The notes under the pieces are model-generated. The model was not told where the DNA came from, did no database searches, and was given only the letters and a program-made list of their open reading frames with translations. A program made the translations under genes and the position numbers. Shown here one piece after another: positions 13,553-63,675 of a stretch of 64,000 nucleotides of DNA. This DNA comes from Cetorhinus maximus (lineage: Eukaryota). How positions within the stretch are numbered: position 1 is the stretch's first letter; each line of letters begins with the position of its first letter. The stretch is from positions 107,136,001 through 107,200,000 of the forward strand of contig NC_135889.1 in assembly GCF_964194155.1 (NCBI RefSeq), given 5' to 3'.

Positions 13553-15029
13553 GTAAATAAAAGAGGCCAAAATATTTTAGTTTGGATAAATCTGCAGATA
13601 TACTTTTCTAATGAATAATGTGAGCCATACAGATCATGAAGGCCACGAGTTCTGGTCTATGCTGAATTGGCTGATTTCGGTCATAACGCTGGTGTGGTTG
13701 TTATAGATAACGTTGGCTCTTTGGGATAGATTGGAACATAAGTTATGATACCATCCCACTGAGATTTGCTTGAAGTGTATGCTTATGGACATGGGTGTGG
13801 GTAGTGGATCGAAGCTTAGCTTTGTTGCATACAATGTCGCATGACTTGCTGACGTTCTGAAAAGCCATTTTTGTTTAGTTCTCATAGAGAACAAAATGGG
13901 AAGATGCTTCATTTTTGAACCATCACCATGTTCGAGTCTCTAAACCACACTATTGAAAATTGTGCACCAGCAGAATTTGTTTGCCCAGTATTGATTGCAC
14001 ATGTTCTTCCCCAATCCTGTGTGCAGAGAGCTGACGTGCATGTTGCAGTGTTGAGACTTAAATTCTAGCACCTATAGGGTTTAACTACCTAAAATCACCA
14101 AACTTCTCCAGCTAAACTACAAGCTAATACCCTGATAGTTGTTCTCTAGAACTGATTGGAAAGGGAAAATTCCAGCCTCCAGTGGCTGATGTGCCCCTCC
14201 AGTTTCCATTCACGAGAGAGCCTGGCTGGTCTGTCAGTGACAGTAACCTGCAATACTGACACTCTTATTTAGTTTGGGCATTGGATTATCAGTCTTAACA
14301 GCTCCATCTCTATCCCTCAGAAACCCATATTGCAATTAGGGAATGAAATGCCTCCTTTTGATGGAATTATAGATGTCAATCCAGTTGTATCTTTCTGCAT
14401 GTTTTCTAAAATTTCTAAAGCTTTGGGTGAGAGGGGTGATTGGCACACTAGTGTGGGCAGTCATTTATGCCCAATCTGGGGAGCTACATCAGCTATTTTT
14501 TGTATATTGACTGGGCCAAAATAATGTATAAAACACATTTCTAACCAGCGCCCCCTGGCAAACTAATTCTAAGGTAGCTGAATCTAGACTCAAATGGAGT
14601 TTCCTCTATTTTCTAGGGCCTTGCCTGTCTTGAGTCCTTTTGTGTGCTATATTGCTGAGTATTCATTGAATGAAGGCCAGCATTTCAGTCTGGAACAATG
14701 CAGCCAAAGCCTGAGGTTGGATGGGACTTACTAATCTAAATTAGTTTAACCTATTGTTTCTCTCATTTTAAAGGGTGTGTGTGTGGAGAAAGAACATTTA
14801 GTTTTCCTGTATTTGAGAAACCTTTGTATCCCATTTGATGTGGGTATGACTTAAGAGTTTAAAATATTGCTTTTACCAACTCCCATGTTGGCTACCTGAA
14901 TTCCTGCTCAATATTTTTTTTAAGAAAGCTTGGAACTTTTTATGGTATTGGCAAGCAATGCTTAAATGTAACTTTATTGGCAAAACTTTATTCAAGTTCC
15001 TAAGCCATCACCTGAAGCCTGTTATTGAG

Positions 15030-30818: not shown

Positions 30819-30992
30819 TTAGATGGCATCCACATAGTTAGCAGGCAGCATGCCTGTCAACCCAGTCCTTTGTACAGTACCATACATCCATCCTTCATCA
30901 ATGGACTGAACATTCATAAGGAAGTCACCATCTTTGAAAGAGACTTCATCTGCATCAGCTGCTGAATAATCATATATGGCACGGTATGTTTT
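30819..30992 (-). CDS. NEB: Nebulin last exon, SH3 domain
   Basis: ccacag|AAA...TAA. Encodes [57 protein letters not shown]; the RIF1-NEB tail-to-tail synteny supports NEB. Confidence 0.95.
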
Positions 30993-32342
30993 CTGTGGGG
31001 AAAAAACATGATCAGATCAATACCTACAGGAGATTTTTTTTCTCAAATCCAATTTTCTATTTAGGAAAATATTTTTCCACAAAATGTAGTGCTTGCTATA
31101 AAACATATATTCTTTTATTTATTTTCATCATTTTGGGGTATACATGAGCATCACCCGTTGTGCGCAGATGAAGTGGTTCATTTGCGAAGGCCAGTCAAAC
31201 CTTGGCTAAACCAACATCACCCGCATAGCTTCTGAGCCTGCCAGCTGACTTTCGGGCACACTGTCAGGGGCCAAAGGATTGTCCAGTTGGGTTGGCATCA
31301 ACCTTTTCCTAATCATGCCTGTGTAGTGAGTCCGAGTGTGCACGTTAGTGTGTTAATGAGTTGTACAAATTATTGATATCAAATCAATAATAACTGGATA
31401 CAGGGAGAGAGGCAAGAGGTACAGTGATTGGGTGTGTACCTGTCTGGCAGATTGGTAGATTATGGGATAGTGACTAGAAAGAAAATCTTAGATCAGTTGG
31501 GAGGGATTCGTTTTTGATTGCTGTGGCAAAGCAAGTGATATTAACTAATACAGCTTTAAGGTAATGGGTTACGCAGAGCTCTCTGACTCTCACCATGTAA
31601 ACATTGCATGACCTAGTACTGAGCCATGTTGACCAGTATGTCCATCAGAACAGCTCCTATGATTATGATCGGCCACATACTCTGGGACCAGAGGGAAGAA
31701 ACGAACAACCATTGTTTTGCAGTTGGCTTTGCTGGAATGTGTATGTATGATAAAGTTAGCTGACAGGAAGTAGGGAGAGGGCGGGGGGAGGAGCAAGGTG
31801 GGTTATTCTCCTGTAGTCTGGGTGGTTGGTATACCTGAACCAGGAAATGGTAAGTGCCATAATGATAAATCAGTGAGTGAACAGGTGTTTTGTACAGTGA
31901 TGCGCTTATGTACATTCACTCTCAATACAACAGTTACATTCTAGCAAACTAGTACACCGAAACTAAATAATAATTTACAATAAAATAAATAATATTATCT
32001 TTTTAAAAAGACTGAGAGCACCTCTGCATTAAATGATGCATTTTCTTAGCAAGTAGACAGCATAAGCAGAGAGCTGCCACTCCCTCTGGCGAATGCTGGA
32101 AAAAGAACTTGTTTGACTTCAGGGGAAAATGCTGGACTGATTAGCTATTCTGTTAAATGAACACAGTAGTAGATCACATGGTGACTGTGGCCACCATGGA
32201 ATCAGCAGCCCACATGCCATCCCCTATGACTGATGGGGGCTGCAAAGTGTTGAAACTCCCCTCAAGTTTGCCTTCGATTGTTTTGTGACTACCCCATTAT
32301 TTCCTGTGCAATAAGTTTAGATTTGTCACATCAGTCACTTAC

Positions 32343-32449
32343 ACCAGTTGTTGATGGGTGAGAGGGAATAGATGACACGTTAGTCTGCTGTGTGGCAACA
32401 GAGGATGATCTCTGCTGTGGCAGGACAGTGGTTTTGGTTTGTTGGTAGC
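32343..32449 (-). CDS. NEB: Nebulin exon, serine-rich region
   Basis: tttcag|GC...GGT|gtaagt. Encodes YQQTKTTVLPQQRSSSVATQQTNVSSIPSHPSTTG. Confidence 0.93.
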
Positions 32450-32698
32450 CTGAAATAAGCAAGGAAAAGATTGTGTGTTAGCGAGCAGGTAAAAATGAAT
32501 GCATAGCTTATTTAAAAGTTGCTTATCAAAGAAATTATTGCAGAAAACTAGCTACAGTTCAAGACATACCCCATTCTACACAGCTGAAAAAATGAGAGAT
32601 TTGCAACTGTAAGCCTTTCCAGGTCCCTGGGCCTCGAAAAGCTTCCAAATATAAAGTCTTAACCCTATAAATGCAATGAACTGATGACCAAAATCTAG

Positions 32699-33329
32699 GG
32701 GCAGGATTTTATGTATTGTGGGCGGGTGCGCGCCTGACCCAGTCAGGCGTAAAATAGTGCATGATGACTTTGGGTGAGCGTCCTGACGTCATTGCGCACT
32801 CCTGCGATATTCTGGTCGACGGGCGTGCGCGAGAGTCAGCAGTGTGCCCACCGACAATTAAGAGGCCTATCAAGGCTATTAATCAAGTAATTAAAGCTAT
32901 TTTCCGCTGCCCACCCAAACTTACGGCTGGTGAGCAGGTGAGCGAATTGGCCAGGCGGCCTCAACGGGCAGGATGAGGTTTCCAACGTTAATGAAAAAAA
33001 AAATTTCTTTTTTTTTTACTTCATTTTTATTATGTTTATGCTCATGTGAGTGAATTTTGTTGTGTGGAAATGTTTTTCACATTTTCATAATCTTTCATTT
33101 TGATTTTAATATTCTTCAGCTCCCTGCCTTCAGGGAACTTTAGCGCTCATGCTCTTTCCGCCTCCGCACCCTGGCAGCTCTGAGGCTCTGAGCGCATGTT
33201 CCACCCTGTCTGGCCGTTAATTGGCCAAGGCCAGCCAGCGTGAAATGGTGGTTGGGGCCAGTCGCAGACGGAAAATCATTTCCCGGCAGTTCTTGGGCCC
33301 ACCCGCCTGATGACCCGAAAATCCTGCCC
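32699..33329. mobile_element. MITE (PIF/Harbinger-like), 12-bp perfect TIRs, 3-bp TSD
   Basis: gggcaggatttt ... aaaatcctgccc, flanked by tag/tag. Confidence 0.8.
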
Positions 33330-34343
33330 TAGATTTCTTCGTGCATTTGAAATTTTCCACCTTCTTTGGTCATAGTACCTTGAAACCTAAATGTCTGATA
33401 CATTAGAAGACTTCGGGGCATATAACAGAGTACATGCGAGAGTGAATTCCAATCTCACCAATGATTAGAAGCGACTTATTAATCAGAAAGCACATCATCA
33501 CCACCATTGGGAAGCTTTCACATAAAATTACCGTTCACACGATTGGCCATCGAGTTGCACCACCTTAAATCCTTTCGCCTGTTAAACGGTACGCAGATGT
33601 ATCATTTAACCGGCCAAACCCTATCCTCTTCCGCTGTTTCCCTTTGTTCAATCTAATGAGTTCTACCATGTGTCCTTACAGTTTCTCCTGTTTATAAAAA
33701 TAATACCTCCTCGTCAGCTTTTAAAAGCTTTGGCTGAAAGGAGGAAAGGATTTAATGATATGTACTCTCCTGCAGCCCACAAACACTTTCCCGTAGTATT
33801 GTAGTGCTAGAATCAATTGTAAACTTGAACTTAAACTCTGCAAAATGCTGCAGACCCTGGAAATCTGAAACAAAAACGAAAAGTGCTGGAAAAACTCAGT
33901 GGGCCTGACAGCATCTGTGGAGAGAAAGACAGAGTTTACGTTTCGAGTCCGTATGACTCTTCTTCAGAACTAAAGAGTAGAAATGTGGTGAAATATATAC
34001 TGTTTAAGGGGGGGGTGGGACAGGTGGAGCTGGATAGAAGGCCAGTGATAGGTGCAGGCAAAGGAGAGATTGCAAAAGATGTCATAAACAAAAGGTCGAA
34101 GGGGTGTTGATGGTGGTGATACTGGCTAAAGGAGGTGCTAATGGTGACATTAAGAGTAGAAAGCAGGATGAGCCAGTGACAGATGGCCCTAGTGGGGGTG
34201 GGGTGGGAGGAGGGGACGGTGTGGGAGAAAAGATTGAAGTAGGTTAAAAGGTGGGGATAAAACAATGAGGGGAAATAAATTGAAAAAATAATAATAGAAA
34301 TAGGTGGGAAAAAATATATATAATTTTAAACTTGGTCACTAAC

Positions 34344-34490
34344 TGGTTGGTGCCGTCTGGAAGAAGCTGTTTCCGTTGCAGTAACTAATGGTATGATCGG
34401 GTTCAGAAAGTTCCGATTTCTCATCTCCGCCACTCAGGCTCTGGGCGCTAGCGGAGCGCGAGTGCTCCCGGCTGCGGCGCTGCGCTTGAA
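34344..34490 (-). CDS. NEB: Nebulin exon, serine-rich region
   Basis: tttctag|TT...A|gttagt. Encodes QAQRRSREHSRSASAQSLSGGDEKSELSEPDH. Confidence 0.92.
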
Positions 34491-35141
34491 CTAGAAACAA
34501 GCACATTGGAACAAATGGTTGCAATGAAATCAAGGATTCAGGCTGCAAAGTATTTTAAAGCACAAACAAAATGTTTTTTCCCCTTAAAAAACCCCTGTTC
34601 TAGCACAGTGTCTATATACAATGGCACAATCACACTTCCGAAATTTAATCAAACTTCACTTATTAATTTAAAGTTAATCTTTTATTTTATTCATTCATGG
34701 GACGTGGGCATCACTGGCTGGGCCAGCATTTATTGCCCATCCCTAATTGCCCTTGTTCAGATTGCTGTGGGTCTGGAGTCACGTGTGGGTCAGACCAGGT
34801 AAGGGCAGCAGATTTCCTTCCCTACAGGACATTAGTGAACCAGATGGATTTTTACAACAATCGGCAATGGTTTCCATGGTCATCATCAGGCTTTTAATTC
34901 CAGATTTTTATTGAATTGCCATTTGCCATTATGGGATTCGAACACGGGTCCCCAGAGCAATACCCTGGGTCTCTGGAATACTAATCCAGTCACAATATCA
35001 CTATGCCACCACCTCCCCAAATCTGCCCTGTCTGGAGGATTATTTTCAACAAATTACCAGTCTTTGAGTAAAGAAGTAGTGCTTCAAAACAGATCCCCAC
35101 TAAATAGTATGCAATAGTACGTAATAAAAATACAGACTTAC

Positions 35142-35234
35142 TGCTTAACATGTGCAAACTCCTGGACTGAATGTTGTCTTCAGCCGGATCATAGTCAAAG
35201 ACTGAGCCAGGGTTGGTGCGCCATACACGCAGAT
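35142..35234 (-). CDS. NEB: Nebulin exon
   Basis: ttccag|AT...A|gtaagt. Encodes LRVWRTNPGSVFDYDPAEDNIQSRSLHMLS. Confidence 0.95.
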
Positions 35235-41918: not shown

Positions 41919-42102
41919 CTGTGAGGCTCTCGCCTTCGTTTTCCACCCGGCGTCTCTGCATTTCCACGACCCGCCTTTGGATGCCACGGTAACTGATGTC
42001 ACTGAAGTCTTGCATGTTCTTCTTTACACGTTCGGTGATGGGATCGGTAACCACAGGTGTGAAGTTTCCCTTGGTCTTCTCAAAGTCTTCATGGTATTTC
42101 AC
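41919..42102 (-). CDS. NEB: Nebulin exon (last nebulin module)
   Basis: ttttaag|GTG...G|gtatgt. Encodes VKYHEDFEKTKGNFTPVVTDPITERVKKNMQDFSDISYRGIQRRVVEM. Confidence 0.95.
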
Positions 42103-44794: not shown

Positions 44795-44902
44795 CGTTGA
44801 TATGTTGCGCTGAGAATCCCGTACACGTCTCATCTCTGGTGTGTCCAGCACATAAGCCGCCCTCCCTTGCACTTGTTTACGGAAGCTGTCAGAGTATAGG
44901 AC
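44795..44902 (-). CDS. NEB: Nebulin exon (Z-disk module)
   Basis: ttacag|GTC...ACG|gtattg. Encodes VLYSDSFRKQVQGRAAYVLDTPEMRRVRDSQRNIST. Confidence 0.95.
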
Positions 44903-46467: not shown

Positions 46468-46560
46468 CGAGCTAATGTTTTCTTGATTGCGTTTAACGCG
46501 CTGCATCTCTGGTGTGTACACCACTGCGGTCCCTTTACCCAGGTTTTCTTTGTATAAGAC
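46468..46560 (-). CDS. NEB: Nebulin 93-bp Z-disk exon, TPEM/RNQEN type (single copy)
   Basis: ctgcag|GTC...TCG|gtattt. Encodes VLYKENLGKGTAVVYTPEMQRVKRNQENISS. Confidence 0.93.
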
Positions 46561-47740
46561 CTGCAGAAGTAAAGCACCCAAAATGAAAAGATAAAAATTC
46601 AACAGTCTTTCAAGACCGTGTACATGACTCAACACAAATACAACTCAAATCGACTAAAAGTGATGGTTGAGAAGTTAAAAATATAAGATGTTAAAAAAAC
46701 AATTAGTTTTCATTAAAATGAAATGAAATGGCTTTAGTGAAAAAGCAGTGGATGAGAACAGAAGCCAGGACTATGCCAAAATTTGGTTTCAGAAAATGGA
46801 AGCACCAGATCCTTATTACAATTACTGTGCAAGAAAACATTCAAAAGTATTTTTGCAAATACTTTTAGCCTATTATTGTATAGCAACATCTGTGCTTTTT
46901 TTGTAAATTAACAGGAGTCTGAATCAGAAATATTGGATCACAATTATTCTGGAGGTAAAAAAAAACATTAGCGACATTGGCCTCAGGTAAAGACTGCAGA
47001 TAGAACAACAATATGCAAATATTTTGAATGAACAAGTGTTTCTAATTTCTGAAATGTAGAGTTAAATACAGAGTTAATTCATATTTTGATGTAAGCAAAT
47101 TTGATTGCTGATTTCCCCTTATATGATTGCTTGCATTTTCATGCACGATTAAGAACATTTGAAACCCAAACTGACGCGAAATGGGACAATTTCAAACTTG
47201 ACGGATATTTGTTAAGCCAGTAAAGGTCACAACAGCTTCAGAACTTCTTTACGCTGATGGAACAGCACCAAAGGTCTAATGCTGTGAAATAATAAAGTAA
47301 ATGAAACAAACTGGAACTGAAGGTAGGGCTTGGACATGCCCAACATTGAGCACTGAATCTAACAGAGGGTTGAATTCAGTAAAGCTTTGGAATCGACCTT
47401 GCACTGGATTCAAAGGACCCAAGTCCAGTCGAGTGCTAGTTCTAAAATGGGCAACATTGCTGTGTGCTACCTTTGGTCTTTTCAGGTTAATTTTCTTTTT
47501 CAAGCAATTTGAAAATAATCCCTGAAGACAGCCTTCACTTTCTCTTTATGGAATCCCTTCAAAATTGGCAGAGTCCTGGCTCCACAAAAACTACTCATTT
47601 CCAAACATTAGAAGGATGTAAATACAAACACGCAAGATGATGAAGCAAGTGAAAAAAAATTGACATTGTACGACTTGTGTTTAGTGCTGTGATGGGGGTG
47701 AAATCACAAGTTAGCAAAGTGCATCAAAACCAGCAGCTAC

Positions 47741-47833
47741 CGAGCTGATGTTCTTCTGTGTCTCTTTTACACGCTTCACCTCAGGCAGGTCAGAGATTGC
47801 AGTTCCTTTCCCAATACCTTCCTTGTACTTGAT
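47741..47833 (-). CDS. NEB: Nebulin 93-bp array exon A
   Basis: tttgtag|ATC...TCG|gtagct. Encodes IKYKEGIGKGTAISDLPEVKRVKETQKNISS. Confidence 0.9.
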
Positions 47834-49512
47834 CTACAAAGTGCGTAGATCAGAAAAGAAAAGAACAGCCTGTCAGCACACAACAAACGCAACACACGGA
47901 CCAACACAAACTGCAACAAGTTACACCAGTTCTAATAAGTTAAACTGGCGAATTAGATTATGTTATCAAATACCATTTAACTATTCTCAAAGTAATCACA
48001 AGTTATCAAAAGCACCAAGGAAAATGTAAACAAACTTTCTGAGATTCAATGTGATGTCCATATGAAATGAAACACATTTGAAATTGAAAGTTCGTTAGTT
48101 AGAAAATGGAAAGTTGGTTAGTTGAAATCAAATTTTAACCTTAGTGAAAGAGTACCATTCAAAGTTACATGTTCAGCAAAAAGATCACTGTCAATGATCA
48201 CGGCAAAATTCCTCATGCTTCCATCCCTGAAAATAATGTCGCAATCGTGCCCAGCAGTGCCCTCCAGCGCTAATCTTGGTGCAGTTTTTCCACTATTAAT
48301 GCAACTCGTTAGTATGGGGCAAGCTCCTCTTCAGGGTACATCTCTGGCTCTGATCTGTAACTGGTAACTGGAGACTCCAGCAATCGCTTGATCATGGGGC
48401 AGATGGGGATTCCCTCGGCCCATCCATGGTCATAACTAATGAAGCCAAACTGCAATAGTTTTTCTCTTCTAAGGCGCAAGCTGCTGAACTCATGATGATT
48501 TCAATGATAGGGCCCATGATTGGGTTTGTAGAGTACACAATGCCTACACTCCTTCAGTGTACCACTAATACGCAAGGTCACCCTCCAGGCTCAGGAGCAG
48601 AAACTCTTGCTTTATTGAGTCCCTGCCTCTGGTCCTAGTCTCTACTTGCCTGACAAACAGAAGACCCACCCCTTAAAAGAGAGCTGGAGAACTCCTGGAA
48701 ATGGTGGACAACCAGCGCAACCAAGTTTGGCCATTTTTTTTAAGCGGGTCCTGCCAGAGATGCAGAAGGAGATTGTGAAAACCAATATAGAACAACCTCC
48801 TTGACCGCCACCCAGATATATTGCAATGATTGCTAAAACTCATTACGTGAAATTGTATTTTTTGTTTTAGCAACTCTTTGCTTTATATTTAAAAAATGCC
48901 AGTGGCTCTAGTTTGGATGACCAGTTAAAGTAAAGTCGGCTTCTTACAATTAAAGTTAATGTGAATCACTCTGAAAATTTGAAGCTACAAATCAAAAGAA
49001 TTATGCAGGAATGTGAAACCAAACTTCAAATTCAAATAATTAAAAATCAAAGCTCTGATTTAGATTCCAAAACATGCTGCAACTGATTTTGTATTTAAAA
49101 GCCTTTAGGTTATTTGACAAGTATTTCAGATGTCATGTGCAATAAAGCTACATTGCTGTTGATTTAACTTACTAATTATGCTTTGTTATAATGAAGTCCA
49201 GGACTTCCAACATACCTACTTCATGCCTGGCATTCTTAGTTACGTCTCAAAGAAGTCATTCTCAGAGAGCCACAATCCTGAGTTAGTTCCACAAAAATCA
49301 AGAAGTTAAAACTAATTTCAAATATCTTGTGGGAAAATGGTGTTATTCATTTCAGGAGTATATGTTTCAACAATCGGGGAAACCTGTTAAAACGATATTG
49401 AGGAGTAAACTGTGAAAAGGAGGAATTGTGTGAATTGTGTTTTAGTGCTAGGAAGGGTTGGGTAGTAAGGGGGTGGATTGTGGGTTAACACAGAAATCAA
49501 GTCAACAGCTAC

Positions 49513-49605
49513 CGAGCTGATGTTCTTCTGTGTCTCCTTTACACGCCGCACCTCAGGCAGGTCAGAGATTGCAGTTCCTTGACCAACATTTTCCTTGTAT
49601 TTGAT
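49513..49605 (-). CDS. NEB: Nebulin 93-bp array exon B
   Basis: Encodes IKYKENVGQGTAISDLPEVRRVKETQKNISS; AG/GT intact. Confidence 0.9.
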
Positions 49606-50737
49606 CTACAAAGTGTGCAGATCAGGGAAGAAAAGACAAACTGTAAGCACATGACAAACAACAACAGCTTGCATTTGCATAGAACTTGAACATAATGAAA
49701 GTTCCCAGTGCCCTTCAGAGGAACAATTATCAAACAAAACTTTACACGGGGTTACATAAAACGCTAGCTAACGAAGACAATCTTAATTAAAGAGATAGGT
49801 TTTAAGGCATGTCGCAATGTTGGAAAGAGAAGTAGAGAGGCAGGGAGGTTTAGGGAGGAATTCCATGAGCTGCAGTAATACAGGACTTTATACAAATGAT
49901 GTCAAGTGAGACTGTATCCACACTAGAGATTGGATTGGCCTAGTGGATAAAGGCTTCAGCCAATCTAGCACTAACTCACACAAACCAGAAAGTAGCCTTG
50001 ATTTAATTCCCAATATTTGTTGAGTAGTAGCCATGCCAACAAATGAAGAGCGACAATTAACCTCAGCACCATTGGGACAGGGAAGGAAAAATCAACCAGG
50101 GATGCCAATGCGGATATCCATCCAGCAATTTCTGCTTCTGCAAAGTCAGGATGAATCTTCATGGTGATCCTTCCACAGTCATTGCCAACTCAAGGTCTAA
50201 GCTCCTACACCTGGTGAGATGGTGGAGGGCTGCCAGAGCATGAACACGTACTGCAGAATTTGGAAATCAACCTGGATACAAAAACCTTTAAAAATAATCC
50301 TAAAAGTTCTGATTCGATGATAATAAAAGTACAGAGCTAAATGTTGACTTTGTGGTTCTGATTCAAATTCCATCAATATTCCAAAGCCTGCTTTCCTGTT
50401 GTTTTTTTTGGAAGCTGTTTAATCCATGCTATAGATGCTGTATTCGTATTACAGTCATGGCTTCTTAATGTTGTTCTTTGTTTTCTGTCTCACTGCACAG
50501 CATCGTAAGGTCTTACGAAAAATTGCTTACGCAAGCTCTTCCCCCATCAATAAAATCTATATGTCAAAATTGACAAAACTTTATGTATAAGGCACAAAAA
50601 GGTTTCAAGAATTTGAAAAAAAAGTTACATAAAAAAAGACTAGAAAAAAAATGACATTAATTGTGTTTAGTGACAGGAAGTTTCGGACAGGGGATATCAT
50701 GAGTTTAAAAAAAAAGGGGAATCAAATTGGCAACTAC

Positions 50738-50830
50738 CGAGCTGATGTTCTTCTGTGTCTCCTTCACACGCTTCACCTCAGGCAGGTCAGAGACTGCAGT
50801 TCCTTGACCAACATTCTCCTTGTATTTGAT
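50738..50830 (-). CDS. NEB: Nebulin 93-bp array exon C
   Basis: Encodes IKYKENVGQGTAVSDLPEVKRVKETQKNISS; AG/GT intact. Confidence 0.9.
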
Positions 50831-51919
50831 CTACAAAGTGTGCAGATCAGAGAAGAAAGGACAAACTGTCAGCACATCACAAACGAAAAACAAAAGCAAC
50901 CAACATTTATACAGGACCTTTAACATAGCAAACATCCCAAGGCACTTTACAGGAACCATCATCAAACAAAATTTGACAACGAGCCACCCAAGGCAACATT
51001 AGGACAGCAGAGATAGGGTGTTAAGGAGTATCTTAAAGGAGGAAAGAGAGGTAGAAAGGCAGAGAAATGAAGGGAGGGAATTTCAGAACTACAGTAATAG
51101 GTAGACATTATACAAATGCTATGAAGCCACAGACTGCATCAAACCACATGGAATTCTCCCACAATAGCCTAGTGGGTAGAGGCATCAACCAGTCTTGCAC
51201 TAAGTCACACAAACCAGTAAGCAGCCTTTAATTCCCAGTCTGTGTTGCGATCATAGTAAACATGGCAACACGTGAAGAGCTGGCTTTGGCATCATTGGGG
51301 CTGGGAGAGAAAACTAGCCTGTGGATGGCAATGTTGGTGTCTATCCAGCAATTTCTGCTCCTGTACAGTCAGGATTAAGCTTCATAATGTTGTTCCGAGG
51401 GTTGAATAGTCTACTCATTATCTAAGCTTACAGAAGGAGGGCCACTTGGATGAGGTTGTGACAGACTGCTGAAGCATGAATCCATACGACAATGTCAATC
51501 AGCACCTTCAGCAAAGGAGGCCAGAAAGGGGGGAAATAAATTCTGTATTGCGAAAAGGGAACTGCAGGTATTGCCAATGACATTGTGGCCTGGATTTTTG
51601 CAATGAAAGAGGGCCCTTCTGTCAAAAATGGTGAAAGAAGCTGAAATCTGGAAGTTCCATCCCTGCAACACGGCACCTACTATTTTCACGGGAATGGGCC
51701 CAAGATTTGTACATACAGTTTTGCGGAAGCAACTGCCTATATACATCAGTAGCTGTCTCCGGTCATGTCTAATTTTGGTGACCCATATGTGTGAAACATG
51801 ATGTGTGCAGAATAGACCTGGTAGGAGCAGGTCTGAGCTTTGTGGAGTCCTTTGGAGAGGTGGGGTATCCTTTTGGGGAGGTAGGGAACCTCTTTGGATA
51901 TAGTTTTGGGACACAGCAG

Positions 51920-52219
51920 TTAATCATCATCATCGTCATCGACTGGGACAAAGATGTCACGTTCCTCCAGTAATGAGGCGAAGCTCTTGCTGATCTGATT
52001 GCCCATGTAGAGAAAAGGGACGACCACAACAAAGACTTTCATGAGACCAAAGGAAGTCTTGACAGGTCTGGGTAAAATGGCTCCCGATTTTGTCACCACC
52101 ACGTTTCTGAAAGAGTTGAGTTGAATCCCAGCTTTAGTTCGGGGATTCAGAAGGCCCCGGGTTACCTCAGTGCTCAGGGATCTTCCGAGTCCAAACAGAC
52201 GCCACCCGACCGCCACCAT
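51920..52219 (-). CDS. SMDT1: Intronless EMRE (essential MCU regulator) retrocopy with an intact 99-aa ORF; retrogene or young processed pseudogene
   Basis: RNVVVTKSGAILPRPVKTSFGLMKVFVVVVPFLYMGNQISKSFASLLEERDIFVPVDDDDDD aligns with recalled human EMRE RSVIVTRSGAILPKPVKMSFGLLRVFSIVIPFLYVGTLISKNFAALLEEHDIFVPEDDDDDD. Has an Arg/Leu-rich presequence-like N-terminus and no intron. Confidence 0.9.
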   Translation of the reverse strand: MVAVGWRLFGLGRSLSTEVTRGLLNPRTKAGIQLNSFRNVVVTKSGAILPRPVKTSFGLMKVFVVVVPFLYMGNQISKSFASLLEERDIFVPVDDDDDD

Positions 52220-53149
52220 ATTTATGAGGTTGTCTCAAAAGGTCAGGTGCCCTTTGGGGGAGGTCAGGTGGTGTTTTGGAAAGGTAGGTTGCCCCTTGGG
52301 ATTGTTAAAAGCATGAATGTGCATACAAAATGCATGAACTCATTAACTGTCAACCTCATTGGAACTGTCAAAAGTGTCAAAATGAAGTGTCAAAGGCAAC
52401 TGTCAAGCTGTCAAGACATTTACAACTCCTGCCCTTTAAATCCTTGAAACAAATGTCTGGAGTTTAAAAAAATCATGACTTGCTATTTCACTCTGTCTGT
52501 TGACATAAACCTGAGGGCTACCATTACTGGATTTGTGCTGCACAACCTTCCATTATCACAGTAGGATGCCTGTCATTTCAGAATATGATTGACAGCTCCA
52601 AGTGCTTATCAACTCTTTGAAGCAGGACTATGAATTCCAACGCTTGTTTTTCTAAAGGATTATGCACAAATGAAATGTTTGTTCTTATATGGGTTTATGT
52701 AATTGAAAGAAAGTAAATATAGAAAATGGGTTTTTACGAATTAGACTAATTCTTCAAAATAAAGTCTGCAATAGACACATAGAATGTCATTTTTTTTCAT
52801 TTCAGCATGGCTCCTGAGCTCTGCCCATGGTAGATACTGGGTGAGTTGACATGGTAGCTGTAAGGGCAAAAGGTGGTGGGTTGGGTGCATGGGTTTCTGT
52901 GAGTTGGCATAGGGGCTATAAAGGTCATGGGGGTATGTGGAGGGCATGGAGGAGATGAGGGGCCATGGGGATGTGTGTGGCACATAGGTAGGCATGGAGG
53001 GTATGAGGGGCCAAGGGAGCATGGGAAGTTTGAGGGGGTGTGAGGGGTGAGGGCTGGAGGGCCATTTTGTGTTTTACTGTTTTTTAAAAACTCAACACAA
53101 TGCTGGAACACAGAGGCAGGCCTTCTTCCCAGCCTGCTACTGCACCCAG

Positions 53150-54015
53150 CAGCCTCTGCAATGGCTATTGGATCATACTTACTTATTTCTATTTGCACTG
53201 TTAGTTCATCTGTTTTGTTTCAAATGCTATGTGCATTCAGACACAGAGCCTCAAGTTTTGTCCTTTTATTATTTTTGTAACCTCTACTCTTTGACTTGTG
53301 GTCTCTGTCCCTTCCTGTCATGGTGTGTTTATCATTTCCCAAATTAATACCTTCCCCTCTCATCTGTCTCTACTCTTTAATTTACCACAGCTTCCCACAT
53401 TCGATCCCTTGCCCCCACAATTTAGTTTAAAACTCTTTCTGCTTCCCTAGTTATGCCTAGATGTCTCGAGAACCCTGGCACCAGGCAGGCAACACAGCCT
53501 TCTGGACTCTCACTCTTTACTGCAGAGATCAGTGTCAATCCCCCTCACTATACTGTCCTCTACTAGCACTACATTCCTGCTTGCTCCCACCGCTTGACCG
53601 GCTTCCTATACAATGGTGCTATGGCCAGCCTGCTCATCCACCTTGCAGACCTTGCTTTCAGCCACACAGGTTGTGAGCACTTCAAACCTGTTGGACAATT
53701 GCAAAGTCTGAGGTTTCTCCACTACTGTCTCCTCAGTCCCATTACCTGTCTCACTCACAGGCACATCCACTGCTGGCCAAAACAGATGACCCTATTCTAA
53801 AAGATGTGGCTGTCTACTGGAACAAAGTGTCCAGATATTCCTCGCCCTCCCTTAGGTTGCACAATGTCTGCAGTTCAGCTTCCAAATCAATAATCCTGAT
53901 CCTGAATTCCTCAAGCTGCTTACACTTCCTGCAAACATGTTTGTCATGGATCGCCTTGGCGTCCAAAAACTCTCACATTCCACAGCTGCAACATAACACC
54001 TGTCCTGCCATTGTT
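53150..54015 (-). mobile_element. CR1 ORF1 remnant (zinc finger/leucine zipper)
   Basis: - strand reads MAGQVLCCSCGM*..HVCRKCKQLEEFRIRIIDLEAELQTL. Confidence 0.55.
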
Positions 54016-54399
54016 ACTTATGTTATTTAGTTAATTTAATCACTTTCTTAATTAACTTAGAATAATTCCTATGTATGCTACAATTTACTGTGCTTATTAA
54101 ATGTTAGTACCACTGACAACTAGAAGTTACGTGTTTCTTGACTACACAGGTATGTGTTTTAGGTGTTTAAAATTAAAATAAATTAAAGTAAAGTTTTAGT
54201 TCGATTTTATTTATAGTTCTACCATAACTCCTGTGGCCTAAGCTGTTTATTATTACACTATCCCTAACACTAAGCACTTACCGGCCAATCTATAAACTTA
54301 CAAAAGTACTATACTATTTGAAACCCTAGGAACAGAATAAACCTTAACCACTCACCAGATATTCACAAGCTAGCTTCTTCTCTAACCAATTAAACTCAC

Positions 54400-54930
54400 A
54401 AGTCAGGAATACTCTCCACTTGCCTTGATCAATGCGGCTTCAATAACACTCAAGAAGTTCAACACCACCCAGGACAAAGAAATTCATTTGATCGGCACCC
54501 CATACATCACTTTCAACATCCACTCCCTCCACCACTGACACACAATGGCAGCAGGGTGTACTACATACAAGATTCTCTGCAACTACACACCATGGCTCCT
54601 TAGACAGTAACTTCCAAACTCTTGATCTCTACCACCTTGAAAAATAAGGGCAGCAGTCGCATGGGAACACGACCACCTGCAAGTTCCCCTCCAAGCCACA
54701 CACCATCCTGACTTGGAACTATATCGCCGTTCCTTCAGTATTGCTTGGTCAAAGTCCTGGAACCCCCTTCCTAACAGCACTGTGGGCCACGCGTAGGTTC
54801 CCGCGCCAGATGGACTACAGCAGTTCAAGAATGCGGCTCACCACCACCTTCTCAAGGGCAATTACGGATGGGCAACAAATGCTGGCCTTGTCAGCAACAT
54901 ATGTATCCCATGAAACATTAAAAAAAAAAC
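54400..54930 (+). mobile_element. CR1 LINE 3' fragment with A-tail
   Basis: Homologous to 25555-26120. Confidence 0.8.
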
Positions 54931-56101
54931 TACTGAGGCTGGTAGAAAACCTCCCACCGTGTATGCCAATGTTGATGTCCATCCAGCAATTTCCGCTAAT
55001 ACGAAGTCAGGATTAAGCTTTACAGTTGAATAGCCTACCCATTATATAGCTTACAGAAGTAGAACCACTTGGCTGAGATGGTGTCAGGCTGCTGAAGGAT
55101 GAATCTATACCACAATATCAGTCAGCCCCTTCGACAAAGGAGGGCAGAAAGAGGGGAACAAAATATGTATTACATCAAACTACAAAATACAGGTCATAAA
55201 AGGGAACTGCTGGTTAGATATGCAATTAACATTTTCAGTAAATGTCCTGAAATCAGAGAGTACCTTCATTGTAAGTAATTAAATAAAGAAAGCTCATGCT
55301 GTATCCCTTTAGAACTAATCACGTTTTTTTTACTACTTTGCCTTCAAATAACTTATAGACCTAATGGAGATTGGGAATTGATAGATTGAATCTTAGTAGA
55401 AAAATTAAATATGATATTTTATCTTTAAGATGAATGTACCAAGCAACACCATTTAAATTGAATGTAACTTTATCACTAAATGGATTACAATAGTTTCAAA
55501 AAGATTTATTTATTAATAACATGTGGCTCAATGTGAATTTTTTAAAATCCTGAAGATGCTAAAAGTGAAGGACTGAGTTCCGTATCACAAATGAAATTCT
55601 GATTGGCAGATCTCAAAAATTAATCTAGATTCAAAAATTTGAAACACTAAGGTTTGAGTTAGAGATGATAAAAGTATGAGGCTAAATGTTGACTTTGAGG
55701 TTCAAAATCAAAGGCCATCATTATGTTAAAGTCTGTTTTCCTGCAGTGTTATTGAAAGCTGTGTCATTTATACTGTTGATGCTGTATTGATATTACAATC
55801 ACAGTTTTGTTATGTTGCTTTTGGTTTACTTTCTCAACGCATTGTATTAAAATGTATGACCAAAAAAAAAGCTTAACCATTAATTTTCTTCCCCCTCACA
55901 TATATGTAAATTCAAAACTGATAAAAAAAAACTTAAGTACATTTCACAAAAATGTTTCAAAAATTAGAAAAGGTTAAAATAAATTTGAAAAAAAAGGCTA
56001 GAAAAAATTGGCATTAATTGTGTTTAGTGGTAAGAGGTACTGGGTAGTAAGGGCCAGGGTGAATCATAGGTTGAGAAAAGGGGAATCAAATTGGCAACTA
56101 C

Positions 56102-56194
56102 CGAGCTGATGTTCTTCTGTGTCTCCTTCACACGCTTCACCTCAGGCAGGTCAGAAACTGCAGTTCCTTGACCAACATTTTCCTTGTATTTGAT
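56102..56194 (-). CDS. NEB: Nebulin 93-bp array exon D
   Basis: Encodes IKYKENVGQGTAVSDLPEVKRVKETQKNISS; AG/GT intact. Confidence 0.9.
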
Positions 56195-56889
56195 CTACAA
56201 AGTGTGCAGATCAGGGAGGAAAGGACAAACTGTCAGCACATCACAAACAAACAACAACAACTGGCGTTTACGTAACACCATCAACATAGTAAAACGTTCT
56301 AAGGCACTTTACAGGAGCCATCAACCAACAAACTTTGACATCATAGCACATAAGGCAACATAAGAACAGAGAAGTGATTTTAAGGGGTGGTTTAAAGGAT
56401 GAGGGAGATGCGAAGAACTGGAGAAGATTAGGGAAGGAATTCCAGAGCTACAGTCACATGTAGACTTTATATAAATGATGTCAAGCCACAGACTTCACCT
56501 CGCTACACATTTGAATCTGCTTTATTGGCCTAGCGGGTAAAGGGATCAGCCAGTCCGGTACCAATTCACACAAATCAGTAAAACAGCCTTGGTTCAAATT
56601 CCAGGTCGGTTTTGAGGAAGTAGCTATGACAAAATGTGATGAGCTATAACGAGTCTCAGCGTTCCTGGGAAGGGAAACTCGGCCGAGTATGCCAATGTTG
56701 ATGCCTATCCAGCAATTTCTTCTTCTGCAAAGCCGGGGTGAAACTTTATAGTGACGTTTCCATAGTTTAATAGCCTAACCATTATCCTAGCTTACAGAAG
56801 AAGGCCGCTTGGGTGGCATGTTGATGGGCTGCTGGAGTATGAATCTATACTACAATATCAGTCAGTACCTTCAGCAAATGAGGGCTGGT

Positions 56890-57470
56890 TGAGTACGGTC
56901 AGTACTCTGCCTATTGCAAACAACCCAAAGGGACATGCTGTTTGATATGGTCCGCCAGTCATTGGGACATATCGCTTACGTACCTGGCATCACACCGGCA
57001 CTGAAATTCATGTACCATATTACTCATTTGTGTGGTAGGCAGAACGCCTTTTTGGTTTTGCATCAGCATCCACTCGCGTTGCCACTGCACAGTAGCAGCA
57101 TGAGTCAGTTGGCTTCATCTGTTGCTCAAATTATCGAGATACTTTACCTTTTCAAGGTATTTGAGGTAGCTGGGGACTTTTCAGGTCTGAAAGTGTGGGC
57201 CACAATGCACAGCGAGCAATAATCTGATCGGGGTAGCCATTATCCCACAGGATAGCTTTGATGCGCCCTACGGCATCAAGCATGCATAGTTTGCAAATGG
57301 CATAGGCCCTATTTATGAGATTGTCGATAAGGCCAATCTTATAGCAGTGGAACTGTAGGAATCCCAATGCATATATTGAAGGTAGGCTTGCGGTAAACTG
57401 TAGTGGAAAACAAATTAGCAGATTTCTCAACTAGCAATTCAAGGAAAGGCTTTGAAAGGCTTCGATAGAG
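56890..57470 (-). mobile_element. Penelope-like retroelement fragment
   Basis: YKIGLIDNLINRAYAIC..IKAILWDNGYPDQII, the post-RT helical domain of Penelope-type elements. Confidence 0.65.
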
Positions 57471-58064
57471 TATCTCTTTCTTCAGCAGGAATCAAGTATG
57501 TATTACAGTGCATCAAATTACACGGTGCAGGCCAAGAGGGGGGGCTGGAGATTTCGCCAATGAAACTATGAATTGCAGATGTCAAAATAAATCCAGGTTT
57601 AAAAACATTCAATACTAAGTTCTGCTTGGGAGATAATAAAAGTACAGGGCTAAAATGTTAATTTTGTGATTCTGGTTCAAATTCCATCAATACCCCAAAG
57701 CCTGTTTATCTGCTATTTTTGGAAGCCGTGTAATCTGTGCTATTGATGCTGTATTCATAATACAGGTTTTCTTATGTTGCCTTGTTTTCTTTCTGAATGC
57801 ACAGCACTAAAAAAAGTCTGACAAAAAATGCTTTTGACAGCAATTTCCTTTGCCCCGATAATATATAAATTTTAAAACTGATTTTAAAAAAAGCTTTTGA
57901 GTAAATTCCACAAAATGTTTCAAGAATTAGGATAAGTTAAAAATAAACTTGAAGAAAAACGCCTTGAAAAATGACATTAACTGTGCTTATTGGCAGGAAA
58001 TGCTGGGTAGTAAGGTGTGGGATGAATCATGGGTTAAAAAAACGGAAAACAAATTAGCAGCTAC

Positions 58065-58157
58065 CGAGCTGATGTTCTTCTGAGTCTCCTTTACACGCTG
58101 CACCTCAGGCAGGTCAGAGATTGCAGTTCCTTGACCAATATTTTCCTTGTATTTGAT
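58065..58157 (-). CDS. NEB: Nebulin 93-bp array exon E
   Basis: Encodes IKYKENIGQGTAISDLPEVQRVKETQKNISS; AG/GT intact. Confidence 0.9.
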
Positions 58158-58227
58158 CTACAAAATGTGCAGACCAGGGATGAAAGTACAAACTGTAAGC
58201 ACATGACAAACAAATAACGACAGCTAT

Positions 58228-58392
58228 TATCCTGGAACACCCTCCCTAACAGCACTGCGGGTGCACCTACACCACATGGACTGCAGTGGTTCAAGAAGGC
58301 AGCTCAGCACCACCTTCTCAAGGGCAATTAAGGATGGGCAATAAATTCTGGCCTAGCCAGCGACCCTCACATCCCTTGAACGAATAAAGAAA
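58228..58392 (+). mobile_element. Short CR1 3' end inserted in one array unit
   Basis: tcctggaac..ccctaacagcactg..cttctcaagggcaatt..tgaacgaataaa. Confidence 0.8.
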
Positions 58393-59544
58393 ATACAGCA
58401 TCTTAACATATTAAAACAGCCTAAGGCATTTCACAGGAGCTAGTATCAAAAAGAACTTGACTGTGAAAAACGTAGGGCAACATTAGGACAGAAGAGGTCG
58501 GTTTTAATGAGTGACTTAAAAGAGACAACAGAAGTAGAGAGGTGGAGGTTTAGGGAGGGAATTCCAGGGCTACAGTAAAATGTAGACGTCTTACAAACAA
58601 TGTCAAGCCACAGACTGCACAAAACCACACATGGGATTCTCCCCCATTAACCAACTGAGAAAGGCATCAGCCAGTTTAGCACTCGCTCAGACAAACCAGT
58701 AAATTCCCAGTCAGTTTTGTGACAGTCGCCATGGGAATGTATGATTAAGCTATAACCGGCCTCAGCATCCCGGTGGCTGGGAGGGGGAGCTCAGCCGGGG
58801 ATGCCAATGTCGATGTCTGGCCAGCAACTTCTGCTTCTGCAAAGTCCGGATGAAGCTTTCTAGTGATGATCCCACGGGTGAACAGCCTACCCATTATCTA
58901 AACTCACAGAAGGCGGCCCACTTGGATGGCTCTTGGTGCATGTATCTATACCACAATATCAGTCAGCCCCTTCAGCAAAGGAGGGCAGAAAGTATAGATT
59001 ATATCAAACTGCACACTGCAGACCAAAAGGGGAACTGTAGGTTTCTCTCATAAAATTCTGATGTGCAGATCTCAAAATTAATCCAGATTCATAAACCTTA
59101 AATTCTGATTTAAGCTCTGATTATGAGGTAACAAAAGTGCAGGCTTTGTTAACTTTGAGATTCTGATTTAAATTCCATCAATATGCTAAAACCTGTTTAT
59201 CTGCTGTTTTTTTGGAAGCTATGTAATAAATGCTATGGATATCGTAAATTGCAATCAAAGTTTGCTTATGTTGCCTTTTGTTTACTATCTCACTCTAGTG
59301 TGTTGCACAGCCTGACAAAAATTGCTTACTCATTCATTATTTTTCACCCTGAAGAAGACATAAATGTTAACATTGATAAGAACCTTATGTATATTCCACA
59401 AAAAAAGCTTAATGAATTAAAAAATAGTGAAATAAATTTGAAAAAGGATGAGAAAAAAGTCATTAATTGTAATTGTTGGTTAAAAAAAAAATGTTGGGTG
59501 GAAGGATAACGGGTTAAAAAAAGGGGAATCAAATTGGCAACTAC

Positions 59545-59637
59545 CGAACTGATGTTCTTCTGAGTCTCCTTCACACGCTTCACCTCAGGCAGGTCAGAGA
59601 TTGCAGTTCCTTGACCAACATTTTCTTTGTATTTGAT
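59545..59637 (-). CDS. NEB: Nebulin 93-bp array exon F
   Basis: Encodes IKYKENVGQGTAISDLPEVKRVKETQKNISS; AG/GT intact. Confidence 0.9.
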
Positions 59638-60892
59638 CTACAAAGCGTGTAGATCAGGGAGGAAAGGACAAACTGTCAGCACATGACTAACAAACAACAA
59701 CAAGAACTACTGGCATTTATATAGCACCTTTATCGTAGCAAAATATCCCAAGATACTTCAGAGGAGCCATTATCAAACAAAATTTGACACCAAAGCACAT
59801 AAGACAACGTGAGGACAGAAGAGATAGATTTTAAGGTGTGTCTTAAAGGAGAAGAGGGAGCTATTGAAGCAGGGAGGGATTTCCAGAGCTACAATGGTAC
59901 ATAGACTTTATGCAAATAATGTCAAGCCACAGACTGCACCAAATGACACATTGGAATCTCCCTCATTGACCTAGTGAGTAAAGGCAACAGACAGCCTGGC
60001 CCTAATTCACACAAACTGTAGTGGCCTTAGTTTAATTCCCAGTCTGTGTTGAGTTGGAAGCCATGGCAACACTTGGAAGAAGCTACTTCCAGCTTCAGAG
60101 ACCCTGGGACGAGGATGGGAATCTCAGCCGGGAAGACCAATGTTGACGCCTATCCAGAAATTTCTGCTCCTGCAAAGTCAGGTGGAGCCTTTATAATGAT
60201 GCTCCAACAGTTGAATAGCCTACCCGTTATATAAGCTTACAGAAGTGGGGCCACTTGGGTGAGATGATGTCAGGCTGCCAAAGCATGAATCTGTAGCACA
60301 ACATCAGTCAGCCCCTTCAGCAAAGGAGGGCAGAAAATGGGGAATAATGTGTATAGTACATCAGACTACACACTGCAGGCCAAAAAGGAAGTTTCAGGTT
60401 TCTCTAATGAAATTCCGATTTGGAGATCTCAGCAATTAATCTGGATTTTAAAATCTTAGACATTAAGTTCTGGTTCAGGGATAATAAAGTACGGGGCTCA
60501 ATGTTAACTTGGAGGTTCTGATTCAAATCCCATCACTATTCTAAAGCCTGTTTATCTGCTGTTTTGTTGGAAGTTGTGTAATCTATGCTGAAAGTGTTAT
60601 CTATTGCCATCATGGTTTTATTATGTTGCTTTTTGACTACTTTCTCACAGCACAGCATTGTGAATTATGACAAAAATAGCTTGTACATTATTTTTCCCTA
60701 TAAAATATAATGTCAAAATTGATTTTTTTAAAAAGTGTGAATTCCACAAAAATTTTTTTCAAGAATTAAAGTAAAATTGAAAAAAGACAAACAAGAAATG
60801 CCATCAATTGGCGTTTGGTGGCATTGGAAATGTTGGGTAGTAAGGTGCTGTGCTGTGGGATAAAAAAAAAAGGGAATCAAATTGGTAACTAC

Positions 60893-60985
60893 CGAGCTGA
60901 TGTTCTTCTGTGTCTCCTTTACACGCTTCACCTCAGGCAGGTCAGAGATTGCAGTTCCTTGACCAACATTTTCCTTGTATTTGAT
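60893..60985 (-). CDS. NEB: Nebulin 93-bp array exon G
   Basis: Encodes IKYKENVGQGTAISDLPEVKRVKETQKNISS; AG/GT intact. Confidence 0.9.
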
Positions 60986-62197
60986 CTACAAAGCACGTAG
61001 ATCAGGGAGGAAAGGACAAACTGTAAGCACGTGACAAACAGCAACACATGAACTTTCTGCAAACAATATCCAGACACACACTGCACCAAGCTACACACTG
61101 GGTTCTCCTCCATTGGCCAAATGGGTAAATAAATGCATCTGCTTGCAGACTGTACAAACCAGCAAGTCACTGACTTTGATTCTAATTCCCTTGTACAGTA
61201 GAATACAATTGGCATGGGGTGGGAGGGCATAATTAAAATGGGATAGGGAATTTACCCACTGTTTTCCCACTCCGATCTGGCCAACAGTAATTTTAAATTG
61301 CTAGTGGCAAGGACTTCCGCCCCAAACCTGTGGGGTCCTCTTTAAGTGTACAAGTCAGGCTCCAACCACATCATCTCAGCTTAATCTAGCCTGAGTGGAT
61401 AGCCGTGATGGCTTCCCCATGAAGCCAAACCTGTGGGGAACAGCAGCAAGGGCCAGAAGAGATAAGCTTTACATATCTTTGCATATGTCAATGCTGTCCA
61501 GGAGCTAAAATCTCCCCAGGTCTTAGCAGATGAGTTTGTCGCTTGCCCTGGGCTCATTCTCAATCATCAATCCTGCTCTGAGTTAAAATTAAGGCCCCTG
61601 CTTCATTCTCAATTGAACTCCTATAGTAGGCAGAACAGCAATTGGAGACCTCAGCAGGAAGCCTCAGGTTCCTTGGGCTAGAAAAGGGAAAAAAAAAATT
61701 CAGCCTATATTCTTGCTCTCTAGAAACCTGTTCTCCATGATAAATAGCCTCTAGGTGTTTAAATCCACATGGGGAGAATGATCATGCTGGAAATGTATTG
61801 GAGGGCTATGTGTGCTGATGTACCCATATTCCAGTATAAATTGGCTCTCCTTCACCAGAAGACAGTGAACAGAATGGAAAAAAAGTATATATACACTATG
61901 TCAAACTCCACACTGCAAGCAAAAAAGGCAACTGTAGGTTAAGTATGTCATCTGTTTGTGTTTCACTTTTTGTTAAGGCAGGTGATTAAGTGGACCAGGG
62001 TTTTGTTTAAGCATTCATTTTGAACTTGACAAAGCCTTTGGTTAATTCCATAAAAAACAAAAATTAGAATATAAGTTCTAGCTAAATCAAAATAAATTAG
62101 ACTAGAGAAATTGTGTGAATTCTGTTTAGTGCAAGGGAGGTTCGGTAGTAAAGGTGAATTATGGCGTAATACAGAGGGAAATCAAATTAGCAGCTAC

Positions 62198-62290
62198 CGA
62201 GCTGATGTTCTTCTGTGTCTCCTTTACACGCTGCACCTCAGGCAGGTCAGAGATTGCAGTTCCTTGTCCAACACTTTCCTTGTATTTGAT
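62198..62290 (-). CDS. NEB: Nebulin 93-bp array exon H
   Basis: Encodes IKYKESVGQGTAISDLPEVQRVKETQKNISS; AG/GT intact. Confidence 0.9.
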
Positions 62291-62976
62291 CTACAAAGTG
62301 TGTAGACCAGGGAGGAAAGGACAAATTGTAAATACATGACCAACAATGACAAATAGACCGAGACAAACTACATATCACAATGGATTAGACACTACAACAA
62401 ACTGCAAACATCAAACTACACAGAATAAATGAAGAACAGAACTCTTGCATTACACAGACCAAACATGCAGCCAATCAACTAAAATTAATTTTGATCTACT
62501 CCTTTTAATTCAATTAGATATTTTGCTTGTAATTATGTGAATTTTACATGTGTGACATTGGGAAAAAAACTTACTTAATCATGAACTTGGTTTTCTTACA
62601 CGGATGGGCAATTAGTTTTAATCTTTGAATGAATATGATATGAAAGCAGCATGCTTAGTCTTTAAGAATGCTTAAAGTTCCAGCTATATCCAGTATTCAC
62701 AACTATTTTATTATAATAGTCCTTATAAGTATATTCAAATGTTGTTAAGTTGGAGACATGGGGCTGGCCAGTTGATGCAAAAAAAAAATGCTTTCAATCA
62801 ATTTTTTTTTGAAGAAACCACTGATGAAGCAAACCTAAAATCTGGAAATTGAGTTTATGATTCAAGTTACAGTAGATTGATATTGAATGTTGAATCCACA
62901 CCTACAAATCTAATTTAAAAATTCCAAAATAGCATTCTGAGCTTGAGTTTCCAAATCACAATTCATTTTTGTATAA

Positions 62977-63175
62977 TTCCAAAGTGATTCCAGATTTGGA
63001 AATCCCAGAAGTGATTCCGGATTTGGAAATCCCAGAAGTGATTCCGGATTTGGAAATCCCAGAAGTGATTCCGGATTTGGAAATCCCAGAAGTGATTCCA
63101 GATTTGGAAATCCCAGAAGTGAATCGGGATTTGGAGATCCCAAAGTTGAATCTTGATTTCAAGAATCCAAAAGTG
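62977..63175 (+). repeat. 27-bp minisatellite, about 7 units
   Basis: (gtgattccggatttggaaatcccagaa)n with degenerate terminal units. Confidence 0.92.
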
Positions 63176-63582
63176 GTGCTCTAAATTTGAATCTGAAGAT
63201 CAGATTCTCCTAATATGCCTTGAAATTCACTCTGGGATTGGCTTTTAAATCTTGACTGTTTAAGTATCTCCCTCTAGTAACATTTACTGCAGGTGTATCT
63301 GTGTCCATAATAAAGCTCTTCTGATGCGTTTGTTGCCTTTTTTCATTTTCCCCACGTAGCTCTCTACCACTTCTGCAGTCTTCTGTCCTAAAAGCAGTCC
63401 TAAAAAAAAATGTCCTCACCAAAATTGTTCACATTTCAAAAATACAAATGAGTTTGAATGATTTGAAAAATGAAAAAGAAATTATAGGGAAATGGTATCA
63501 ATGAAATTTAGTTTATGACACAATGGGTTAGGTGGTCTGGGTGGATCATGAGGTGACATAAGGAAATTAAACCAGCAGCTAC

Positions 63583-63675
63583 CGAGCTGATGTTCTTCTG
63601 AGTCTCCTTTACACGCTTCACCTCAGGCAGGTCAGAGATTGCAGTTCCTTGACCAACATTTTCCTTGTATTTGAT
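63583..63675 (-). CDS. NEB: Nebulin 93-bp array exon I
   Basis: Encodes IKYKENVGQGTAISDLPEVKRVKETQKNISS; AG/GT intact. Confidence 0.9.

Follow-up and report, generated by a model that had tools for sequence, protein, structure and literature searches.

The 64,000-nt stretch of Cetorhinus maximus contig NC_135889.1 analysed here (the window) carries, judging from its coding sequence, the 3' end of a cartilaginous-fish nebulin (NEB) gene on the minus strand. The Z-repeat tract of this gene contains nine closely similar exons of one class and a single exon of another, and comparison with other vertebrates makes it probable that different lineages amplified the tract independently from adjacent single exons. 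In the proposed history, the jawed-vertebrate ancestor would have possessed three adjacent single 93-nt phase-0 exons, A, B and C, before the constitutive C-terminal repeats, each of which could be duplicated or skipped without a break in the frame. Because any of the three can be copied or skipped in frame, different lineages would have used different units: B in cartilaginous fishes (nine copies or more here), chiefly the A+B pair or A alone in teleosts, and C in lobe-finned vertebrates. Unequal crossing-over may have been the mechanism, presumably with some exon-centred homogenisation of the copies. By analogy with human exons 167-177, the B copies would be spliced optionally, and selection would act on module number (Z-disc width) rather than on module identity.

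The B and C exons of the tract

The exons of the tract and the two repeat exons that follow it are as follows.

63583..63675, minus strand: B-type (DLPE) Z-repeat exon, copy 1, outer; flanks unalignable to other copies beyond about 60 nt
62198..62290, minus strand: B-type exon, copy 2, outer; 93 nt, DLPE-type
60893..60985, minus strand: B-type exon, copy 3, start of the inner block; 93 nt, DLPE-type
59545..59637, minus strand: B-type exon, copy 4; match to Pfam Nebulin PF00880 below the cut-off, E 0.002
58065..58157, minus strand: B-type exon, copy 5; 93 nt, DLPE-type
56102..56194, minus strand: B-type exon, copy 6; 93 nt, DLPE-type
50738..50830, minus strand: B-type exon, copy 7; 93 nt, DLPE-type
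49513..49605, minus strand: B-type exon, copy 8, end of the inner block; 93 nt, DLPE-type
47741..47833, minus strand: B-type exon, copy 9, outer; the most divergent, 88-92% DNA identity to the others
49513..60985, minus strand: inner block of whole-unit (exon plus intron) tandem duplicates; basic period about 1.2-1.5 kb
46468..46560, minus strand: C-type (TPE) Z-repeat exon, present once; coelacanth and tetrapods amplified this class
44795..44902, minus strand: conserved repeat exon of the VLYSDSF type (D); 84% identity to coelacanth NEB
41919..42102, minus strand: last repeat exon, VKYHEDF type (E); 78% identity to coelacanth NEB, Pfam Nebulin E 3.6e-5

All nine B exons are 93 nt long with AG/GT ends, an open frame and phase 0, and each codes for 31 residues that start with xxYK and end with SS, which gives the S-S-x-x-Y-K junction of Z-repeats. 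The B/C tract also has the position of Z-repeats, immediately ahead of the final conserved repeats and the serine-rich domain. The B copies are 88-99% identical to one another in DNA and 93.6% identical on average in protein. The ratio of nonsynonymous to synonymous change (dN/dS) among them is about 0.21 over 36 non-independent pairs, and the copies are under purifying selection. The C exon shares 57-61 of its 93 nt with the B copies and has no flank homology to them. When a profile of 100 module rows from other species was run against the 64 kb, it gave 12 matches, namely the nine B exons, the C exon, a partial match in the VLYSDSF exon and one non-significant match in the next exon; with this profile, no further or degenerate module exon was found in the window. 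The sequence-only reading had claimed at least nine DLPE-type exons and one TPEM/RNQEN-type exon directly before the VLYSDSFRKQ exon. The single exon was found in exactly that place, and nine intact DLPE-type exons were located, a count that is a minimum, with only 325 nt of the window upstream of copy 1.

Class assignment and lineage distribution

The module tree was built from 110 rows and 31 columns, comprising the window modules and modules cut from database proteins: the nebulins of coelacanth, a frog, echidna, rabbit, wagtail and lamprey with six teleost records, and the nebulettes of human, coelacanth, catshark, newt and a bird. The 25 B modules all fall in a single starred clade (100/96), which unites the nine window copies with the teleost B modules, the nebulette B modules and the single B modules of coelacanth, frog, echidna, rabbit and wagtail nebulin. 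The lobe-finned C modules (51 of 51), the window C module and three teleost C modules form a separate starred clade (98/94). Compared with the single B of coelacanth or frog, each window B module is identical at 26-28 of 31 residues; compared with the best C, at 18-19 of 31. Five columns divide all 25 B modules from all 51 C modules, and the nine window copies carry the B diagnostic residues (D15, K27, no T16) and no C diagnostics.

A survey of 53 vertebrates (Gohlke et al. 2021, PMC7754682) gives 5-18 Z-repeats of 31 residues for each species, and the class counts in this paragraph were made in this analysis from Data S2 of that paper. The whale shark row reads A+9B+C, that of the thorny skate A+8B+C and that of the elephant shark A+6B+C, in agreement with the totals of 11, 10 and 8 in Table 1 of the same paper. 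The translation of the window C exon is identical to that in the whale shark row, one residue off the elephant shark and two off the skate, and several window B copies differ from the whale shark B copies. Because these three published chondrichthyan rows run A-(B)n-C, further C-type exons upstream in the shark are unlikely. Among tetrapods, one B was counted in 43 of 43 rows (Data S2 pages 10-17; from pages 18-25, only the human and frog rows), and human NEB reads A+B+11C. The teleosts hold 2-4 B copies: zebrafish and pike read ABABC, perch ABABABC, trout (AB)4C and tilapia AAABABC, with A repeated alone in cichlids. The single teleost C was traced to the end of the tract in four of seven teleost rows, perch not among them.

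The shark pattern has therefore been legible in the public alignment since December 2020, and the present analysis is a re-reading of known data with modest additions: the coelacanth pattern, the lamprey run, nebulettes with single A, B and C, the module tree and the intron analysis. In the portions consulted, PMC7754682 speaks only of 'differential expansion' and counts Z-repeats as one class. No publication beyond it was found that names the amplified exon class for each lineage, although the older Bjorklund 2010, Millevoi 1998 and Donner 2004 may do so; the words shark, lamprey and tandem are absent from the main text of the preprint 10.64898/2026.10.05.756842.

Coelacanth nebulin is A+B+9C, the tetrapod pattern, and therefore the C array is lobe-finned and not only tetrapod. 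The coelacanth C copies average 90.5% identity among themselves versus 76-79% to tetrapod C, which therefore points to separate expansion or to homogenisation. The tetrapod C modules group apart from those of the coelacanth (94/81, not starred), and the two arrays may be separate expansions. A nebulin-like protein of the sea lamprey has a run of five TPE-type modules, of which three are near-identical, and lacks the DLPE type; after its serine-rich region it also has a long low-complexity stretch of Gln, Ser, Gly and Thr. In a census of 148 long nebulin records, mostly rodent isoforms and not independent, 121 have one A and one B, none has more than one B, two have one of the two, and 25 have neither (19 from lamprey, where the anchor motif fails, one from a mormyrid and five coelacanth short isoforms). 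Protein searches with a B-exon query and with a trout C-terminal fragment covered proteins no longer than about 2000 residues, and most of their matches were nebulette.

The paralogue nebulette (NEBL) serves as the outgroup. In catshark and coelacanth, nebulette carries A, B and C once each; elsewhere the B+C pair is duplicated in mammals and crocodile, and C occurs twice in birds and three times in the newt. Because C is single in sharks and teleosts, B is single in lobe-finned vertebrates and nebulette is single-copy, parsimony supports a 1:1:1 A-B-C ancestor of jawed vertebrates.

Several observations weigh against independent amplification. The tree bootstrap had not settled, with 42 of 92 inner branches open. 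Approximately unbiased (AU) tests were run on 68 rows, after removal of lamprey, the wagtail and echidna C modules, one trout B and duplicates. They rejected neither a clade of the window B copies with all nebulin C (p 0.37) nor one with frog and rabbit C (p 0.20); only the single pair B1 + rabbit C6 was rejected (p 0.03). Because 31 columns give these tests little power, the case rests on the diagnostic columns and the outgroup. In addition, the TPE-type run of the lamprey is a further expansion that leaves the state before jawed vertebrates ambiguous. No nebulin of gar, bichir, sturgeon, lungfish or any chondrichthyan stood among the 120 of 3210 matches listed in a lamprey-based protein search, and the other cartilaginous fishes are represented here by the PMC7754682 alignment. 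Finally, according to one review, the spliced modules may sit outside the Z-disc (PMC7109182).

Based on these results, the sequence-only reading holds in large part. Its statement that human NEB has one DLPE module and then a run of TPEM-type exons is borne out by the one B and 11 C of Data S2, and the exon-level phylogeny that it proposed places the nine copies with the single B of coelacanth and tetrapods, away from C. One-to-one orthology with the tetrapod alternative exons is contradicted by residue identity, the diagnostic columns and the rejected B1 + rabbit C6 pair, but the array-level alternatives survived the AU tests. The same tests, and a functional convergence that is itself conjectural, qualify its statement that the variable Z-disc region was built independently in different lineages, which the two clades, the diagnostic columns and the 1:1:1 nebulettes favour. 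The simple reversal between shark and mammal is correct as far as B versus C is concerned, but the split is at least four-way: B, A+B or A, C including the coelacanth, and the lamprey TPE-type.

Duplication history and alternative accounts

The spacings between successive B copies are 1385, 1305, 1348, 1480, 1963, 5364, 1225 and 1772 nt. The five inner introns, from B3 to B8, are 68-75% identical over most of their length. The introns B1-B2, B2-B3 and B8-B9 are alignable only near the exon, and the B9-C intron is unalignable. In global alignment the flanks of the outer copies lay near the shuffled background, and local BLAST was used instead; the flanks of the C exon and of the next exon matched no B unit (0 of 18 comparisons). 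Given this contrast between inner and outer introns, copies B3 to B8 arose by tandem duplication of whole units, and the remaining three appear older. E-x-I-G is present in the last B copy of the window and likewise in that of the whale shark and of the skate; the second window B copy has E-S and Q in common with the second copy of the skate (Data S2, PMC7754682). These few residues weakly suggest that part of the B array predates the shark-skate split.

The exons and their introns tell different stories in places. B1 and B3 differ at 1 of 93 nt, yet their introns are unalignable beyond about 60 nt, a near-identity that would reflect either exon-centred homogenisation or strong nucleotide constraint. 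Divergence at fourfold sites is 0.10 versus 0.24 in deep intron (13 of 36 pairs, those with at least 300 aligned nt). In three tests on disjoint pairs, the synonymous deficit gave p 0.13, 0.017 and 0.14, significant in one of the three, and 56 of 120 pairs of informative sites are incompatible in a four-gamete test run with no control. Exon-centred conversion or splicing constraint acting on the B exons is suggested by these sequence comparisons.

Two of the introns have further structure. In the 5.3-kb B6-B7 intron, a segment of about 250 bp from the repeat-unit intron occurs twice, at 51296-51549 and 54934-55215, separated by about 3.4 kb of other DNA, part of which is a dispersed repeat also present near 25570-25994 and 40979-41386. 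The duplicated segment may mark a tenth unit that has since been lost, or an insertion accompanied by duplication; the search for an exon remnant there gave none. The B1-B2 intron contains a 27-bp minisatellite of about 6.4 copies (62975-63175).

These features bear directly on other possible histories. If an old multi-exon array already lay between A and the constitutive repeats in the jawed ancestor, and each lineage overwrote it by gene conversion or birth-and-death, the arrays would record turnover rather than independent construction. Homogenisation does look active, as seen in the B1/B3 pair, the fourfold-site divergence and the four-gamete result, and both the self-similar coelacanth C copies and the array of the lamprey agree with such turnover. 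On the other hand, catshark and coelacanth nebulette are single-copy for each class, the repeat unit varies by lineage (B, A+B, C), the inner shark introns record duplication of whole units, and the synonymous deficit, significant once in three tests, could equally be splicing constraint; we consider this history improbable. It is very unlikely that B amplification was itself ancestral to jawed vertebrates, followed by A+B rework in teleosts and loss in lobe-finned vertebrates, with the C expansion alone being new. The 2-4 B copies of teleosts would suit this order of events, and the shark and teleost B modules did not separate from one another within the B clade; yet the teleost unit includes A, cichlids repeat A alone and the shark arrays have one A (Data S2, PMC7754682), and inner introns that are still 68-75% alike would be hard to fit with a duplication before jawed vertebrates unless they were homogenised. 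That the nine copies are an assembly artefact has next to no probability. Tandem repeats can be mis-assembled in general, but the exon variants here are distinct, the divergent flanks refute such an origin, and the whale shark, skate and elephant shark rows have like arrays.

By analogy, each of the nine symmetric B exons would code for an optional actin-binding module of 31 residues, and the number included would set how long the tract is. Optional splicing in fish is in keeping with predicted isoforms of coelacanth and mormyrid from which A/B or the entire tract is missing. The window B modules contain no serine/threonine-proline (S/T-P) dipeptides and have a net charge of about +1.9 per module. 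The lobe-finned C modules have 2.0-2.7 such dipeptides per module and a net charge of -0.3 to +0.5, and the PxS/TP motif occurs in 39 of 42 tetrapod C modules versus 0 of 9 in the coelacanth; in rabbit C there are 2.0 dipeptides per module, with PxS/TP in 10 of 12. The S/T-P gain of lobe-finned vertebrates could have added proline-directed phosphorylation, a point drawn from sequence, and no publication specific to phosphorylation of these modules was found. Adaptive convergence on Z-disc width is put forward tentatively. Equally tentative is its fuller form, in which a splice-tunable tract for Z-disc length would have arisen on four or more occasions, from B in cartilaginous fishes, from A+B in teleosts, from C in lobe-finned vertebrates and from TPE-type modules in lamprey, under selection on module number, with only the lobe-finned lineage multiplying S/T-P.

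The same history would hold if the lineage differences were real but neutral, with symmetric skippable exons acting as a duplication hotspot and copy number not selected for Z-disc width; this possibility fits the proposed amplification and differs from it on function only. Nebulette independently duplicated the same exons (B+C; C), Z-repeat number is weakly correlated with super-repeat number (R2 0.19), and the regulation of Z-disc width is stated in PMC7754682 as not directly tested. Neutral copy number is nevertheless somewhat unlikely in view of the frame and splice sites kept in nine of nine exons, the low dN/dS and the lack of any decayed exon copy among those searched for in the window; moreover, in mammals inclusion follows fibre type and Z-disc width (PMC7754682, PMC7863720).

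Gene identity, neighbouring features and known systems

The remaining features of the window lie downstream of the repeat exons or in the neighbouring gene.

32343..35232, minus strand: three serine-rich-region exons, at about 35134-35232, 34351-34500 and 32343-32468; tblastn limits, splice sites unrefined
30822..31010, minus strand: SH3 exon, end of the NEB coding sequence; tblastn, approximate limits
9977..13618, plus strand: large open reading frame, tail-to-tail neighbour of NEB; 1213 aa, no Pfam family match

The D exon has 84% identity to coelacanth NEB versus 52-57% to human and catshark nebulette, the E exon has 78% versus 51-67%, and two of the serine-rich exons were matched by NEB only. 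Because the C-terminal repeat, serine-rich and SH3 exons are nearer NEB, the gene is assigned to NEB and not to nebulette; the super-repeat region would lie upstream, past the end of the window. The VLYSDSF exon is likely the equivalent of human exon 178, a numbering inferred from PMC7863720.

The plus-strand reading frame is a candidate RIF1, judged by its motifs and by the tail-to-tail synteny of NEB with RIF1. It contains a tandem peptide repeat of about 11 residues (SST-x-x-K-x-x-x-x-x type), with about 20 units at about 12290-12950.

If similar tract lengths were reached with chemically different modules, then number would matter more than sequence. The shark tract (no S/T-P, about +1.9 per module) and the mammalian tract (about 2 S/T-P, about +0.4) offer a clean natural swap contrast for how nebulin sets Z-disc width. 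Cross-species 'Z-repeat counts' moreover compare non-orthologous exons.

Among known systems, human NEB exons 167-177 are likewise a run of 31-residue modules directly before the conserved last three repeat exons (PMC7863720, PMC7109182), but there 11 C-type modules follow one B, whereas in the window nine B precede one C. The Z-repeats of Gohlke et al. are the same tract as the window array; the portions of that study consulted include no module tree or intron analysis, and its Data S2 is without coelacanth, lamprey and nebulette rows. The nebulin super-repeats also arose by lineage-specific tandem exon duplication in the same gene (Bjorklund et al. 2010, cited in PMC7754682), although their units are central and of seven modules, whereas those of the window are C-terminal single exons. 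Nebulette, finally, has a homologous A-B-C-D-E series and its B modules join the nebulin B clade; it is nevertheless a paralogue, and the D and E exons of the window are nearer nebulin.

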